Assembly: GCA_029856525.1 (NCBI GenBank)
Contig: JAHQXC010000062.1
Location: 1-7,747, forward strand
Reading direction: 5' to 3'
Source of the DNA: Candidatus Odinarchaeia archaeon
GTDB taxonomy: Archaea > Asgardarchaeota > Odinarchaeia > Odinarchaeales > Odinarchaeaceae
DNA length: 7,747 nt
Positions 1,287-7,722 of this stretch are shown here, one piece after another. Positions within the stretch are counted from its first letter, which is position 1. Each line of letters begins with the position of its first letter. A model generated the notes under the pieces. That model did not search any database and had not been told where the DNA came from. It saw only the letters and a program-made list of their open reading frames with translations. The position numbers and the translations under genes were made by a program.

Positions 1287-1595
1287 TTATGCTAGAAGTA
1301 GGAATGAGATCAGCAGACCGTATATTGCTATAGCCTCTGTTAAGACTACGAAGATGATGCTTTTACCGAGCATTTCAGGCTTCTCTGTTGAGGCCCCGAT
1401 TGCAGCGGCGCCGGCTATTCCAAGACCTATACCAGCACCTAAACCAGCTAAACCGATAGATAAGCCGGCTCCGAGAAACTTATAGGCGTCTGTTATGCTC
1501 CCTGCTTGGAAGGCTGAAACAAATGATAGTGCTTGAACAGCGACGGATATCATAATAATCAAGGTGACAATAACTAATAACGTGGTTTTCTTCAC
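1287..1595 (-). CDS. atpK: A/V-type ATP synthase subunit K (c, proteolipid), single hairpin with N-terminal leader
   Basis: Gly-rich helix GAGLSIGLAGLGAGIGLG, loop EKPE, and second helix VVLTEAIAIYG with the conserved Glu87 (1335-1337). GTG start with an AGGAGG SD at 1603-1608. Confidence 0.97.
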   Translation of the reverse strand: MKKTTLLVIVTLIIMISVAVQALSFVSAFQAGSITDAYKFLGAGLSIGLAGLGAGIGLGIAGAAAIGASTEKPEMLGKSIIFVVLTEAIAIYGLLISFLLLA

Positions 1596-1664: not shown

Positions 1665-2723
1665 TTAATATATGAGGTAGTCTTTTATCTCAGATGGTGG
1701 AATACCCTCTAGTAAAGCGATTAGAATAGTTTTAATATTGTTAACCTCATAGAATTTTAAGTCTATGAATGCTAGAGGGGTTTGAATTTGAAAAGGATAA
1801 GTTCCTAATACAAGCTTAGCCTTATCGTATATGGATTTCTCTAACATGTTTTCAATAAGATAAAATTCTTTTTTAGCCTGGTATTTTTTCCACCCCATGG
1901 AGAGATAGTAGTCGAAAGGAGGGATCATAAAGTGTTTGATAGCTTCCTCTATATTTCTAGAGCGAATAGCAGACAATAAAACATCTTTTTTAATATATCT
2001 TCCCTCTCGAACTATCATTTTCTGTATTTCCACAGGGTTTAAGTTGGAGAGTTTACTGCGTAGGATAATATTTATATTGGTTGCATCTATCATTCTGCCC
2101 AGATAATTATATATTGCCAGATAATCATCAGGTGTTAGAATCCTTCTAGCCGAGTTCACCATCCTGGTGAAAGTATAATAGTCTAAGGCGAGTTCAAGTG
2201 GAAGCAATGTTTTTTCACGTTCAAAGTCTCTCCACACACTTGTTAAAATATTTCTATATCCTTCATCCGGTATAGCTTCAATCATAGACTTCAAAGTTCC
2301 CTTAGAGAGAAGTTCTAATATCGTTTTTTCAGAGAATAATCCGACAGGTACCATGTACATTAATGCTTTTTGAACAGGCTCGCCGCTATACTTTAATCTG
2401 AGAAGAGCTTTTAAAACCGCTGCTTCATATTTTAATCTAATAACTGTTAGCAGGGATCTTATTTCCGGAGGGGATACGATTCTAATACTTTCAATAGCGT
2501 CTATAAACGCTTTATTAAGTAACCTGTCAACTTCTCTCTCAGATAATTCCACGCCAGCCTGTTTAGCGATATACTTAGAGTAATCTGTGTAGCTTAAAAT
2601 TCTAATCATCGCCTGCAATGTTTTACTGCCTACTAGTGCATTAAATTCTTCAGGTGTTAAAAGCTTAGATTTAAGCCCTCTTATTTTAGCGTTTAAAAAA
2701 GATAGTTTAATGGTGTTAAACAT
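1665..2723 (-). CDS. atpC: A/V-type ATP synthase subunit C (AC39/d family)
   Basis: N-terminal NAKIRGLKSKLL and C-terminal EVNNIKTILIA match subunit C motifs (NARIRG.KS.LL; E..N...I). 352 aa, located between subunit I and K genes. Confidence 0.95.
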   Translation of the reverse strand: MFNTIKLSFLNAKIRGLKSKLLTPEEFNALVGSKTLQAMIRILSYTDYSKYIAKQAGVELSEREVDRLLNKAFIDAIESIRIVSPPEIRSLLTVIRLKYEAAVLKALLRLKYSGEPVQKALMYMVPVGLFSEKTILELLSKGTLKSMIEAIPDEGYRNILTSVWRDFEREKTLLPLELALDYYTFTRMVNSARRILTPDDYLAIYNYLGRMIDATNINIILRSKLSNLNPVEIQKMIVREGRYIKKDVLLSAIRSRNIEEAIKHFMIPPFDYYLSMGWKKYQAKKEFYLIENMLEKSIYDKAKLVLGTYPFQIQTPLAFIDLKFYEVNNIKTILIALLEGIPPSEIKDYLIY

Positions 2724-2973
2724 TTTTCTCTCCCGCTCTTCTTTGAGTTAAACGTTTAACTGTCCAGAACAGGTGGAGATACATTATAATAGTTCCCACG
2801 ATCGCTCCTACTCCTACTCCGAGTATCTCATTCCAACCGAGAGATTTAGCTATAATCCAGCCTACTATAGCGAATATGATTATGTCGAAGCCTATCCCTA
2901 AATACTTGAACATCCCCCCGTACGGAGAGGGGGTTTCCTTCTCCCCCTCGTTTTCTTTATTACATAACGTCAA
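2716..2973 (-). CDS. Small two-TM membrane protein, AtpZ/'ATPase gene 1'-like
   Basis: 85 aa, TTG start with an AAGGAG SD (2982-2987) and an 8-nt overlap with atpC. Two hydrophobic helices (LGIGFDIIIFAIVGWIIA; ILGVGVGAIVGTIIMYLHLFW) with the KY..(I/L)G..........G and G...G....Y pattern of AtpZ/gene-1 proteins. The CDS is well supported; the family call is less so. Confidence 0.65.
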   Translation of the reverse strand: MTLCNKENEGEKETPSPYGGMFKYLGIGFDIIIFAIVGWIIAKSLGWNEILGVGVGAIVGTIIMYLHLFWTVKRLTQRRAGEKNV

Positions 2974-2986
2974 CTATTACACTCCT

Positions 2987-4876
2987 TTAGTTAACTGTAT
3001 ATATTCGGCTTATCTTAAAGGGTTTAAACTCTGAGCCTCCGCCTTCATAGAATTTAAGGAACCATTCAACCCAGTGTAATCTGAGCGTGTTTATGAATGT
3101 TAACAAGCCCTCCAGGAACATTACTAAGCCGATCTGTGTTACAATAAACATCACATAGTAGAGTGTGGGTTGAAACACTAGAAAACCTGATTCAGATGCA
3201 GCTAGATATTCATGTAGTATCGGATGGTAGACTGGAGATGAACCTAGATTTATGAATGTCTTACTGAATCCTGCGTGGACTTGGTTTAAAGCTAGAATAC
3301 GAGTGTAAGATATAGTGTTAGATATGGAGGCCACTAAAACTTCGAATGTACCTATGAAACCCTCCATTATATTGCGGTGGGCTACAAGTTTACCTAATAT
3401 TAGCCCGGCGAATGGCATCGCGAATAAATAGAATGATGGATCGGTTAAACTGAATGTTGCAAACCAGTTTGTGAACGTGACACCTCTGTTGAAAGCTAAG
3501 TATACTAACCCTATATAGAACCATATCCAGAAGCCGCGGTCGACGATCGCCTCTAATATTTTACCCTTCTTAATACTGTTTATCACGCCTAAAATTAACC
3601 CGACTAGGAGATGGAGGACACCTATCATAATTGATAAAGCGAATAATAGGAATGGATGGTGAAATGGACTGAATAGAATAGGTCCACTGTAGTGTTCAGC
3701 GCCTGTCACAGGGTCGGTCCATAATTCACCTGGGAGAGGAGAGTATTCAGCTACACCTGTAGCGGGGTTAACATAGTTTGGATCTGTTAAAATCTTCACT
3801 CCGCCATCATAGTCGAAGAAAACGAATAATCCTATAAGCGCCTGTCTTAAAAATAATAGGTAGGGGGCGATCGCGATATACCATGGTTCAGCCACTATTG
3901 AGAAGCCTAACATTTCACCGAAAAGTAACCCGAAGAAAATAGAGGAGATAGATGACGCTATTAATAAAGGTGAACCTTTAATCCACCATCCGATCATTCC
4001 ACTAAAATTAGGACGCCCGCGTTTTAAAGCGATGAAGCCTAGCAGTGATGGAATTAAAAGTATTATTCCATGGCCTATATCCGCGAACATTATACCGAAG
4101 AATATGGGGAATGTGATGGATGCTAGAAGCGTCGGATCGATTTCTTTATAGGATGGAACTGAGAATCCTACTGTGAGCATTTGAACTGGTTTAAGCAGTT
4201 TAGGGTTCTCTATGAGAACAGGGGGTTTATCTTCTTTTTTAGGTGCTTCTACTTTAATAATACAGCTATTACTTGTGATCTTTAATAAGGTTTCTTGAAG
4301 TAGTTTAACTTTCTTCTCTTCAACCCAGCCTTCAAATACGAATGAGCGGTCTGTTCGACCGGCTAAGCTTTTAGCCTCCTCTATCCGCTGCTCTATTTGT
4401 AAAATCTCTCTTAGAGTGAGAAGCTCAACAGCTGTTCTTTTTCTAAGATCAATTTTATTCTCCTCTAGCTCGGCTAGCCTCTTCTCTTCTTCTAACGTCA
4501 ACGGCGTTTTATCTTTTAACGACTCATATTCCTTTGAAATCTTAAGATACTCTTGCTCTACTCTCTTAACATCCTCCTCTATCTTAGCCAGGTCGCTTTC
4601 AGTTAACTTCTCATGCTTCTTCTTTTCTTTAACAGCCACTGTTTCTTGAACCCCTAGATCGCCTATCAAACCTTCAACTTGAGATAAGATCGCTGAGACT
4701 CGATAATAATAGTCGCCTGGTTCAACAGGTTGGATAAGCCCGTTGTAATCTGTTATCCTCTCGCTAATATTCTCTAATTGAGCTATACCAAGATTACCGA
4801 GCGCTCTTACTATATCATCCACGTATTCGTCTAAAGCGATAACAGTGAACTTACTCATATTAACAGGTTTAAGCAT
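2987..4876 (-). CDS. atpI: A/V-type ATP synthase subunit I (a), 629 aa
   Basis: MLKPVNMSK start, FEGWV, DPT...FPIFFGIMFADIGHG, SNTISYTRILAL with the essential Arg526 (3299-3301), and LRLHWVEWFLKFYEGGG..FKPF. ATG with a GGAG SD at 4882-4885. Confidence 0.97.
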   Translation of the reverse strand: MLKPVNMSKFTVIALDEYVDDIVRALGNLGIAQLENISERITDYNGLIQPVEPGDYYYRVSAILSQVEGLIGDLGVQETVAVKEKKKHEKLTESDLAKIEEDVKRVEQEYLKISKEYESLKDKTPLTLEEEKRLAELEENKIDLRKRTAVELLTLREILQIEQRIEEAKSLAGRTDRSFVFEGWVEEKKVKLLQETLLKITSNSCIIKVEAPKKEDKPPVLIENPKLLKPVQMLTVGFSVPSYKEIDPTLLASITFPIFFGIMFADIGHGIILLIPSLLGFIALKRGRPNFSGMIGWWIKGSPLLIASSISSIFFGLLFGEMLGFSIVAEPWYIAIAPYLLFLRQALIGLFVFFDYDGGVKILTDPNYVNPATGVAEYSPLPGELWTDPVTGAEHYSGPILFSPFHHPFLLFALSIMIGVLHLLVGLILGVINSIKKGKILEAIVDRGFWIWFYIGLVYLAFNRGVTFTNWFATFSLTDPSFYLFAMPFAGLILGKLVAHRNIMEGFIGTFEVLVASISNTISYTRILALNQVHAGFSKTFINLGSSPVYHPILHEYLAASESGFLVFQPTLYYVMFIVTQIGLVMFLEGLLTFINTLRLHWVEWFLKFYEGGGSEFKPFKISRIYTVN

Positions 4877-5027: not shown

Positions 5028-5537
5028 TTAGAGATGTTCGGAGAGGCTGTTCAACAGGTTCTTCTTATTGAAGATTATTGAGTAGACTTCCTCTATGTGT
5101 TTATTTGTTTCGCTTTTAGATTCCGCTAGCATTCTAATCTTGTTTCTAAGGTTTTTCTGAATTTCATTGTTAAGAGTGTTCTCGCCGATTTGTGTTTTAA
5201 AGTAGTCTTTCACTAGAATTTGAAGCTCGTCTAATTTGTTAACCTCGTTTCTAATATGCGAGTTTAAAATTCTTAATTTCTTATCTAATCCGTTGATAAC
5301 TTCGAGGCTTTGAACGTCGTCAAGCCAGCTCTGGAATTGAAGGATTATCTCTGAGCATAGGTAGATTTTCTGTTGAAGTAATGCTACTAATTTAGCAATG
5401 TCACCGCTCTTATTCGAGTCTAATTCGCTGGCTACGTTGAAAAGCTCACTCATCCGTTGGTTGTAAGATGTTTTTAAAATATTATAGCGCTCGTTTATCT
5501 TAACTAACACGGCGGTTAGACCTTCGCTTTTTCTCAA
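5028..5537 (-). CDS. Hypothetical soluble alpha-helical/coiled-coil protein, 169 aa
   Basis: TTG start with a strong AGGTGA SD (5544-5549), host-like codon usage, heptad-like L/I spacing and no TM segment. No family recognised. Confidence 0.85.
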   Translation of the reverse strand: MRKSEGLTAVLVKINERYNILKTSYNQRMSELFNVASELDSNKSGDIAKLVALLQQKIYLCSEIILQFQSWLDDVQSLEVINGLDKKLRILNSHIRNEVNKLDELQILVKDYFKTQIGENTLNNEIQKNLRNKIRMLAESKSETNKHIEEVYSIIFNKKNLLNSLSEHL

Positions 5538-5851: not shown

Positions 5852-6496
5852 ATGGAAAGCGTTGAAAGAGAAATACAGCTGCTTAAAAAGCAACTAACCA
5901 GTCTTGAAGGTGTTAAAATCGATGTCACCGGATTAAGATTAATGCTTGATAGAGTTGTCAGATTACTGGAACAGCAGCCTAACACAGATAAAGAAGCTTT
6001 AACAACAGTTATAAAAGATAGTGAAACTGTTAAACAAGACGCTCTTGATAGAATTATTTTTGAAAGCGTTTCAGTTTCAAGAAGATTACAGAAAGGCGTT
6101 GTATTTTTATCCTCAGTGAAATTTTTTCAAAACCAGGCTATTCCAATGTACACCACCGTCGTAGAATTCGATGATGAGAATATAGTTGGTGATAATGAGA
6201 AAGCTTTTGAAAGAATAGCGAATTATCTTTCCGCTCTTTCAAACATCGATAGAATAAGAATACTCTGCGCTCTCGCTGAAAGAGATAGATCAGCTAAAGA
6301 GATACAGAAGCTTTCAGGTAAGAAAGGAGGGTCCCTTTACCATCACTTAAACGCTTTAATCAAACAGAATTTAATTGAGAAAGTTGGTAATAATTACAGT
6401 TTAACAGAAAACGGTAGAGAGATAATGGTTATAATGGGTTTAATTAACCAGCAGGCTATATTTCTGGAGAGGTTGGAGTCTAATCTCAGTGTTTAA
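5852..6496 (+). CDS. ArsR-type winged helix-turn-helix transcriptional regulator with an N-terminal coiled coil
   Basis: The C-terminal LSALSNIDRIRILCALAERDRSAKEI...GGSLYHHLNALIKQNLIEK...YSLTENG is an ArsR/HTH_20-like wHTH. The N-terminal IQLLKKQLTSLE...LRLMLDRVVRLLE is zipper-like. Confidence 0.9.
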   Translation: MESVEREIQLLKKQLTSLEGVKIDVTGLRLMLDRVVRLLEQQPNTDKEALTTVIKDSETVKQDALDRIIFESVSVSRRLQKGVVFLSSVKFFQNQAIPMYTTVVEFDDENIVGDNEKAFERIANYLSALSNIDRIRILCALAERDRSAKEIQKLSGKKGGSLYHHLNALIKQNLIEKVGNNYSLTENGREIMVIMGLINQQAIFLERLESNLSV

Positions 6497-6606: not shown

Positions 6607-7722
6607 TTAGATTAGTTTCTTAATATTTATTTTATCCGCTGGAAGAGTCGAAAGTTCTTTCTCTATTCTCTTTAAGAGGAGAATTCTCTTATATGTTGGA
6701 GGATGGGTTGCAAACTTAGCGCTTAAACCGCTCAGCTTAGTTTTTTTAGCCTCACTCTCCATGGCTATTAGTAATTCATGTTCGTTGAGAACACCGTCTT
6801 TATCGAGGTCAAACTCTTCTTTATGCTCTCTAACATACGCCACCTCTAATTTCGCCTGCGATGGATCTGCTATATAGAGATTTCTCATCGCGCTACTCTG
6901 ATTACTCGGAGGGGCTAAAGATAACCCCCATGTTATTTTAGCTAAAGCGCTTTGCATAGAATGAGGGTCACCTGTGGATATAGCTGAGTGAGCGTCAGCG
7001 TAGTGTTCGCGAAGCCTGCTTAGCCCTCTAACTGCTAGAAGTGATAAGAAGAAGATAGCTGAGGCTATAGCTATTATTATCAGGATCACTACTATAAAAC
7101 CAGCGTCTCCCCCTCGACTGGTAGAGCGTGATGAACGACCGAAACCGTAAGCTGTATATAATCCCCCTCTCAATACTAGAAGCGCTAGTAATGGAACGCC
7201 CGCCGCTAAAGTCATTATAATAACGTCTCTATGCTTTAAATGACCGATTTCATGGCCTATAACCGCTTTTATCTCGTTTTTGTTAAGTGATTTTAATAAC
7301 CCTGTGGTTAAGCATAGAGAAGCGCTCCCAGCAGTGCGGCCGTAAACGAAGGCGTTTGGAGCCTCTATATCTACAATTTTTATTTTAGGCGGTTTAACAC
7401 CTGCATTATAAGATAGCTCCTCAACTGTTTTCTCTATCCACGGGTTCTCACCTTTTCTTAGAATACGAGGCTTCATAGCATATTCGACAGATGAGGATCC
7501 TAGCAGCCATTGAACTGTTAAAAATATAGCCACGGATATAAAACCCCATATTATATCTCTAGGTATGGGGATATACACGCCTGTGTTGAAGATCGGAATC
7601 CAGTATAATGCTTCGAAGAAGAAGTCGATAGCGTAAACTATTCCGAAAATAAATATTAACTCTAATATTATTATTAGAATAATAGACTGGCTCATCTTAA
7701 TTTTTAATTGATTTAAATTCAT
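6607..7722 (-). CDS. htpX: HtpX-family (M48) membrane zinc metalloprotease with an EF-hand-like loop
   Basis: PNAFVYGR, HEIGH (HExxH, 7240-7254) followed by KHRD, SRLREHYAD and FATHPPTYKRI, plus N-terminal and central TM helices. A GGTGG SD lies at 7727-7731. Confidence 0.95.
   Translation of the reverse strand: MNLNQLKIKMSQSIILIIILELIFIFGIVYAIDFFFEALYWIPIFNTGVYIPIPRDIIWGFISVAIFLTVQWLLGSSSVEYAMKPRILRKGENPWIEKTVEELSYNAGVKPPKIKIVDIEAPNAFVYGRTAGSASLCLTTGLLKSLNKNEIKAVIGHEIGHLKHRDVIIMTLAAGVPLLALLVLRGGLYTAYGFGRSSRSTSRGGDAGFIVVILIIIAIASAIFFLSLLAVRGLSRLREHYADAHSAISTGDPHSMQSALAKITWGLSLAPPSNQSSAMRNLYIADPSQAKLEVAYVREHKEEFDLDKDGVLNEHELLIAMESEAKKTKLSGLSAKFATHPPTYKRILLLKRIEKELSTLPADKINIKKLI

Follow-up and report, generated by a model that had tools for sequence, protein, structure and literature searches.

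The window analysed here, the whole stretch of 7,747 nucleotides that was studied, is an entire 7.7-kb contig (JAHQXC010000062.1) of an Odinarchaeia genome (Candidatus Odinarchaeia archaeon, assembly GCA_029856525.1; 93% complete, 127 contigs), and it carries the genes for the membrane sector (Ao) of an A/V-type rotary ATPase. On the minus strand the gene order is atpI, X, atpC and atpK, that is, a membrane-sector module I-X-C-K, where X is our working name for an open reading frame (ORF) of 85 residues that is the subject of this report. The first gene of the operon, atpI (2987-4876, minus strand), encodes the 629-residue subunit I/a and matches PF01496 (V_ATPase_I) with an E-value of 2.9e-44. 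Downstream of X, atpC (1665-2723, minus strand) encodes the 352-residue subunit C/d, the candidate partner of X (PF01992, vATP-synt_AC39, E 3.5e-59), and atpK (1287-1595, minus strand) encodes the proteolipid of 102 residues (PF00137, ATP-synt_C, E 6.3e-20). Gene X itself (2716-2973, minus strand) is defined by its ORF, its orthologs (63-100% identity), its ratio of nonsynonymous to synonymous substitution (dN/dS) and profile comparison with hhalign. It encodes a protein with two transmembrane (TM) helices that belongs to the AtpZ/AtpQ superfamily; we call its subfamily X-type and the Pfam-like AtpZ/AtpQ subfamily Z-type.

Translation of X starts at a TTG codon (2973-2971), which is preceded, with a spacer of 8 nucleotides, by a Shine-Dalgarno-like AGGAG (2982-2986, minus strand) that abuts the stop codon TAA of atpI (2989-2987). 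At the other end of the gene, the stop codon TAA of X (2718-2716) and the start codon ATG of atpC (2723-2721) define an overlap of 8 nucleotides (2716-2723), and the atpC start is itself preceded by GGGAG at 6 nucleotides. Judging from the sequence, X is translationally coupled to atpC through this overlap, which we also found in the Odinarchaeia orthologs of loci L001, L002, L007 and L008. An internal ATG (Met21) was considered as an alternative start of X and was ruled out because it is not conserved among orthologs. In the Odinarchaeia orthologs, five in number and 63-85% identical to X, Met21 is replaced by Ile, Val or Ala, and therefore the long form with the TTG start is the gene; actually, the TTG start and the N-terminal extension are kept in all five of them. 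In the seven ortholog pairs with unsaturated dS, the dN/dS of X was 0.04-0.20. X is a real gene under purifying selection. The only metagenome found to contain this DNA is its probable source, and no RNA data set with it was listed.

Regarding the protein, AlphaFold2 run with the family alignment models X as a helical hairpin, with helices at residues 17-45 and 49-82 and a predicted local distance difference test (pLDDT) of about 70-82 in the helices. The first TM segment (TM1, about residues 24-43, encoded at 2845-2904 on the minus strand) lies in helix 17-45 and contains D30 (codon 2884-2886), a position that is acidic, D or E, in 25 of the 26 family members. The second (TM2, about residues 50-71, encoded at 2761-2826 on the minus strand) lies in helix 49-82 and, according to the alignment columns, carries the glycine zipper G52-x3-G56-x3-G60-T61. 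The three glycines of the zipper and G38 are invariant in the family and T61 is nearly invariant; furthermore, N48-E49 in the loop is conserved and many members have H67. Since the C-terminal tail is basic, both termini are probably cytoplasmic by the positive-inside rule. An earlier note on this DNA had described a two-TM gene within the membrane-sector module, with its own Shine-Dalgarno sequence, coupled to atpC and lacking a C-terminal KKxx motif, and the AGGAG, the 8-nucleotide overlap, the hairpin model and the terminal residues GEKNV confirm that description.

In all the X-type loci examined, atpC, atpI or atpK was found within about 1.5 kb. These loci comprised 20 from the Asgard sample, 7 on genome contigs, 3 distinct metagenome contexts and 16 from TACK archaea, with some overlap between the sets. 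There are at least four gene orders around X across the lineages. The order is I-X-C-K in Odinarchaeia, X-C in Hermodarchaeia, and C-X facing several K genes and I (K-K-I) in Baldrarchaeia and Korarchaeia; in a metagenome-assembled genome of 'Thermoprotei' X is divergent from I-K-C, and in Culexarchaeia it lies between C and I on the opposite strand. Because the linkage outlasts such repeated rearrangement, X appears to be functionally tied to the membrane sector.

The rotary ATPase of this genome has one A and one B gene, and its genes lie in no fewer than three places. Those for A1 are separate from Ao and also from one another, with E and A on contig C11 (25905-28152) and B on contig C62 (1360-2016), and no F-type alpha or beta subunit gene was found in the genome. 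As its sole rotary ATPase is of the A/V type, X cannot serve an F- or N-ATPase; it belongs with an A/V-type enzyme of scattered genes whose membrane sector forms an operon of its own.

When 1.8 billion representative proteins were searched exhaustively with phmmer, 23 representative clusters matched X at E<1e-3, nearly all of them with proteins of 65-90 residues. A match set of this kind, with every examined locus beside Ao genes, is far beyond chance. The X-type is known from Odinarchaeia, Baldrarchaeia, Hermodarchaeia, Korarchaeia, Bathyarchaeia, Nezhaarchaeales and Culexarchaeia, and also from 'Thermoprotei' by source name. Among the 301 Asgard genomes sampled, strong matches occurred in only three families (3 of 3, 17 of 19 and 3 of 4 genomes), and weak matches of the X profile (E 1e-9 to 1e-3) in several further families; in Thermoproteota, 22 of 301 genomes had a match. 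Automated annotation has caught this family only partly: the ortholog of O. yellowstonii LCB_4 is automatically named 'AtpZ/AtpI family protein' in UniProt, one member is labelled 'assembly protein I' in IMG, and the members examined are 'hypothetical' at NCBI. An NCBIfam scan of the family gave nothing meaningful, and in the literature we found no paper on AtpZ-like genes in archaeal A/V-type clusters.

The affinity of X was established by comparing profiles. We aligned the X family with 11 Asgard proteins found with PF09527, the Pfam family of AtpZ/AtpQ, most of which are over its gathering cut-off of 26.6 bits. The hhalign probability was 97.3% (P 1.8e-11, score 68, 67 columns), while reversed controls reached 1-68% with scores of 17-33 and an unrelated K hairpin scored 16. 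D30 of X aligns with the Glu of the conserved GSELP motif in the Z-type proteins. A protein-language-model search with X, which serves as a lead only, had AtpZ/AtpI clusters as its top three matches (score 0.82). PF09527 was over its curated cut-off in 10 of the 301 Asgard genomes, all 10 places adjoin an A/V-type atpC, and 4 of them are also weakly matched by the X profile. The control genome of Methanocaldococcus jannaschii, a euryarchaeon, had a PF09527 match as well. Hidden Markov models (HMMs) of the X-type and of the Z-type separate cleanly by score, with cross-matches of 20-39 bits. Furthermore, the two types are found together in Ao clusters of Baldrarchaeia, Korarchaeia, Culexarchaeia and other TACK archaea, and because they occur within the same clusters they are paralogs, not orthologs. 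These comparisons place X in the AtpZ/AtpQ superfamily as a divergent member, and not in PF09527 at the Pfam level. The kinship to AtpZ/gene-1 proteins proposed in the earlier note thus holds at the superfamily level, by comparison with Pfam-validated Asgard members, and so does the linkage of the homologs to A/V-ATPase loci, given that every examined X-type locus adjoins Ao genes. Its statement that genes of the AtpZ/gene-1 type are not members of A/V-type operons fails in Asgard and TACK archaea, which commonly have such genes there.

AtpQ is a member of the N-ATPase operon, atpQ is not confined to N-ATPase operons, and AtpQ and AtpI have no significant similarity to each other (PMC2881411). 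Regarding UncI/AtpI, it is cited in PMC4453477 and PMC4154653 as helping in c-ring assembly. X shares with AtpZ/AtpQ a two-TM hairpin core of about 55 residues, a glycine-zipper TM2, a basic C-terminal tail and a site within rotary-ATPase clusters. Nevertheless, X accompanies an enzyme of the A/V type and not of the F/N type, in genomes that have no F-type enzyme; it forms a separate subfamily under the Pfam cut-off, which co-occurs with Z-type paralogs in some clusters; and it is tied specifically to subunit C(d), with a fusion to a C-like domain in Nezhaarchaeales. Subunit C(d) has, to our knowledge, no F-type counterpart. The likeness of X to UncI/AtpI is that of a small hydrophobic protein encoded in the operon, with a weak match below threshold. 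However, AtpI, which has about 120-130 residues and four TM helices, is longer than X.

The fusion in Nezhaarchaeales was found by a six-frame genome search. In 9 genomes of one TACK class (Nezhaarchaeota/Nezhaarchaeales at NCBI), the X hairpin is the N-terminus of a protein of 375-379 residues, encoded between atpK and atpI, in which the hairpin is joined in frame, by a short linker, to a d-like domain. An index of 5.8 billion proteins yielded no longer or fused form of X, which is a false negative given these fusions. The remaining ~310 residues were compared with a profile of AtpC sequences, the divergent Bathyarchaeia type among them, and hhalign gave 95.3% (P 2e-8) over 278 colinear columns that extend across both proteins, with 0.3% for the reversed control; against canonical AtpC alone the values were 54% in local and 84% in global mode. 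When the Atlas was searched with the fused domain by a protein language model, 27 of the 30 matches were PF01992, with a top score of 0.92. The domain fused to X is, on these comparisons, probably a divergent AtpC/AC39-like one, and its in-frame fusion to the X hairpin is new here. In Bathyarchaeia the two genes overlap, X running into the start of a divergent AtpC that hhalign matches to AtpC at 97%. The fusion and the translational coupling in Odinarchaeia are evidence of the Rosetta-stone type, and suggest that X works with subunit C(d). Altogether, the evidence for C(d) as the partner of X is no weaker than that for the K ring.

We consider it rather probable that X is an accessory or assembly protein of Ao which helps C(d) and the K ring to come together from within the membrane. 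The assembly role is suggested by the gene fusion and by analogy with UncI/AtpI, for which a chaperone-like part at the proteolipid ring has been proposed and which is our functional model for X. According to this proposal, an X-type branch of the AtpZ/AtpQ superfamily would have come into the service of the A/V-type rotary ATPase in Asgard and TACK archaea. X would be made together with C(d) through translational coupling, and from its place in the membrane it would partner C(d), aiding its docking on the K-proteolipid ring while Ao (I-C-K) is built. We infer a physical contact of X with both C(d) and the K ring; a complex prediction of X with four copies of K gave a score of 0.00, which is evidence neither for nor against binding.

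Several results weigh against this proposal, or against the homologies from which it starts. As for the hairpin, PF09527 does not match the X protein of the window at E<=1, and a six-frame search of the genome of X with PF09527 at E<=10 did not match X either. ATP-synt_I (PF03899) matches X with an E-value of 0.011 and 16.6 bits, under its gathering cut-off of 25.1 bits. In the 26 family members, sub-threshold matches were found to PF09527 in 11 (best E 0.0024) and to PF03899 in 8; RseC_MucC (in 16 of them) and Gly-zipper families match just as weakly, and the sub-threshold matches of such Gly-rich TM hairpins are partly compositional. Among the Z-type relatives, 3 of the 16 examined sit beside a LarA-like gene, without a link to an ATPase. 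As for the fused domain, it has no direct Pfam (AC39) match, and an HMM search of PDB with it gave only weak 14-3-3 noise; the AlphaFold2 model of the fusion, made from 8 sequences, is poor (pLDDT 46.6) and its Foldseek matches are meaningless. The Nezhaarchaeales genomes also hold a canonical stand-alone atpC, and therefore the fused protein is a paralog; that the fused domain might stand in for a lost atpC was ruled out, the canonical gene being elsewhere in the genomes. Finally, the sole experimentally reported AtpZ phenotype that we found cited (Hicks 2003, in PMC4453477) concerns Mg2+ acquisition, which the atpZ of Bacillus pseudofirmus enhances, and not assembly.

This phenotype could mean that X is a protein of Mg2+/Ca2+ uptake or homeostasis, that is, a small oligomeric channel that supplies Mg2+ for MgATP chemistry and is loosely connected with the ATPase. 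X is homologous to PF09527, which Pfam describes as 'putative F0F1-ATPase subunit Ca2+/Mg2+ transporter', and the acidic residue of TM1 (25/26 members), N48-E49 and H67 are possible ion ligands. We nevertheless regard such a function as unlikely, because a channel role leaves unexplained both the in-frame fusion with an AtpC/d-like domain and the fact that X is adjacent and coupled to atpC, not to the catalytic genes. Moreover, the Mg2+ phenotype comes from one alkaliphilic bacterium.

Returning to a role of X in the membrane sector, X might be a stoichiometric component of the rotor instead of a transient chaperone, with its hairpin in the central pore of the K ring beneath C(d), where it would plug the ring and anchor d. 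The argument for this place is that a TM element tethered to the rotor must be within the ring if it is to clear subunit I of the stator, and in Nezhaarchaeales the hairpin is tethered in that way to a d-like domain. In eukaryotes, TM helices in the interior of the c-ring that contact subunit d are known from cryo-electron microscopy, namely those of yeast Voa1 and of mammalian ATP6AP1/Ac45 and ATP6AP2. These are likewise short TM elements that Vo assembly requires, functionally coupled to d and the proteolipid ring, but the eukaryotic proteins are single-pass and have large lumenal domains. A tethered hairpin of the Nezhaarchaeales type could take the equivalent position in the ring, as a functional counterpart for which we claim no homology. 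We think that this arrangement is improbable; if it is true, a tenth subunit has gone unrecognised in the A/V-ATPases of Asgard and TACK archaea, and accessory helices inside the ring are older than eukaryotes.

The earlier note had also suggested that X is related to eukaryotic Vma21 or to subunit e. In its strongest form, the suggestion makes X a prokaryotic protein homologous or ancestral to Vma21 or to subunit e of Vo, a chaperone on the exterior of the proteolipid ring inherited from Asgard archaea. X has a size similar to that of Vma21, a two-TM hairpin and cytoplasmic termini, it is linked to a/d/c homologs, and it is found in Asgard archaea, the source of the eukaryotic V-ATPase (PMC10656485). 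Nevertheless, the comparisons do not bear this out. The Vma21 set consisted of 12 database proteins carrying PF09446, all from Saccharomycetaceae, for which a Vma21 fragment of 53 residues served purely as bait. Against these proteins the X family gave an hhalign probability of 0.9% (score 14.7, 7 columns), and the X family and the wider superfamily of X-type and Z-type together ranged over 0.3-0.9% with scores of 12.7-14.7, which is the level of the reversed and unrelated K-subunit controls. A search of the PDB chain sequences with the X-family profile gave nothing relevant, with no Vma21, subunit e or other V-ATPase chain at E<=10. Foldseek of the X hairpin model against PDB had no match at E<=0.001, only generic small TM subunits, and among the matches listed there was no Vma21 or subunit e chain. 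In Pfam, VMA21 does not match the X protein of the window and is outside the 25 families commonest among the matches of the members, and PF05493 (subunit e) does not match X at E<=1. Furthermore, the yeast Vma21 sequences end in KKED or KKEK, a dilysine motif that X lacks, and most of the sampled Asgard families yielded no X-type protein. Homology of X to Vma21 is therefore not supported by these comparisons, with a Vma21 alignment that is yeast-only and short hairpins that lose their signal quickly, and we consider a true homology with Vma21 or subunit e very improbable. What is left is a functional analogy, in size, in the two TM helices and in the association with the assembly of an a/d/c-type membrane sector; Vma21, however, binds the exterior of the ring and then leaves it, while for X a covalent fusion to a d-like domain is possible.

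Gly-zipper hairpins are common, and X could in principle be a generic small membrane protein that hitch-hikes in the operon without any ATPase role, but this is scarcely credible, as the Ao linkage survives rearrangement across two archaeal superphyla and X is under purifying selection and fused with an AtpC-like domain.

We know of no dedicated assembly or accessory membrane protein in the textbook A/V-type ATPase, either archaeal or bacterial V-like. Such factors are known for the F-type enzyme (UncI/AtpI) and for eukaryotic Vo (Vma21, Vma12/22 and Voa1/Ac45). Here a hairpin of the AtpZ superfamily is conserved and tied to Ao genes across Asgard and TACK archaea, which makes X a testable candidate for a protein of d-ring-a sector assembly in the lineage ancestral to the eukaryotic V-ATPase. 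Apart from correcting the idea of a relationship with Vma21, this widens the reach of the AtpZ/AtpQ superfamily from F/N-type to A/V-type enzymes. This wider reach would either put such accessory proteins before the F/V split or imply an early exchange between the two.

Other features of these loci deserve to be recorded. The atpK product of the window has a hydrophobic N-terminal extension of ~30 residues before the canonical hairpin, which resembles a signal peptide or an extra TM helix, and comparable extensions, or longer ones, are present at the N-terminus of K relatives from other Asgard families. The Ao clusters of Baldrarchaeota and Korarchaeota contain a double-hairpin (four-TM) K subunit of 146 residues (L058:4373-4810, plus strand; L013:9020-9457, minus strand; L026:201-638, plus strand) beside one or two single-hairpin K genes of 72-82 residues, and this mixed proteolipid set is reminiscent of the eukaryotic c/c''.

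Immediately upstream of atpI, at 5028-5537 on the minus strand, there is a gene for a predicted coiled-coil protein of 169 residues without a Pfam family, which occupies the same position in all the Odinarchaeia loci with 52-79% identity. The gene ahead of atpI in canonical archaeal operons is atpH, which raises the possibility that the coiled-coil protein is a divergent peripheral-stalk subunit H/G.

Another small ORF, of 80-85 residues and with two TM helices, accompanies the X-type gene in L097 (1178-1435, minus strand) and L083 (1774-2013, plus strand), directly upstream of atpK in Nezhaarchaeales or of atpC in another TACK genome. The ORF of L083 scores as Z-type; the one of Nezhaarchaeales is too divergent for a Z-type score, and its likeness is by eye only. 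In the Asgard loci L043, L053 and L055, a Z-type gene lies beside a LarA-like gene (lactate racemase family), at about 5900-6450 in each, which suggests that the Z-type gene has a second conserved context with a LarA-like neighbour.

Just downstream of atpK, the window contains a PIN-domain (VapC-like) protein (E 5e-6) and an upstream ORF of 70 residues (299-661 and 757-969, both on the minus strand), likely a VapBC toxin-antitoxin pair. This pair is absent at the matching position of O. yellowstonii LCB_4, where an NTP-transferase gene follows atpK. On the other side of the operon there are a gene for an ArsR-type helix-turn-helix protein of 214 residues with a long N-terminal extension (5852-6496, plus strand) and one for an M48 (HtpX-like) peptidase whose C-terminal part shows a weak EF-hand-like match (6607-7722, minus strand), and both genes are syntenic with the Ao operon in all the Odinarchaeia loci examined.

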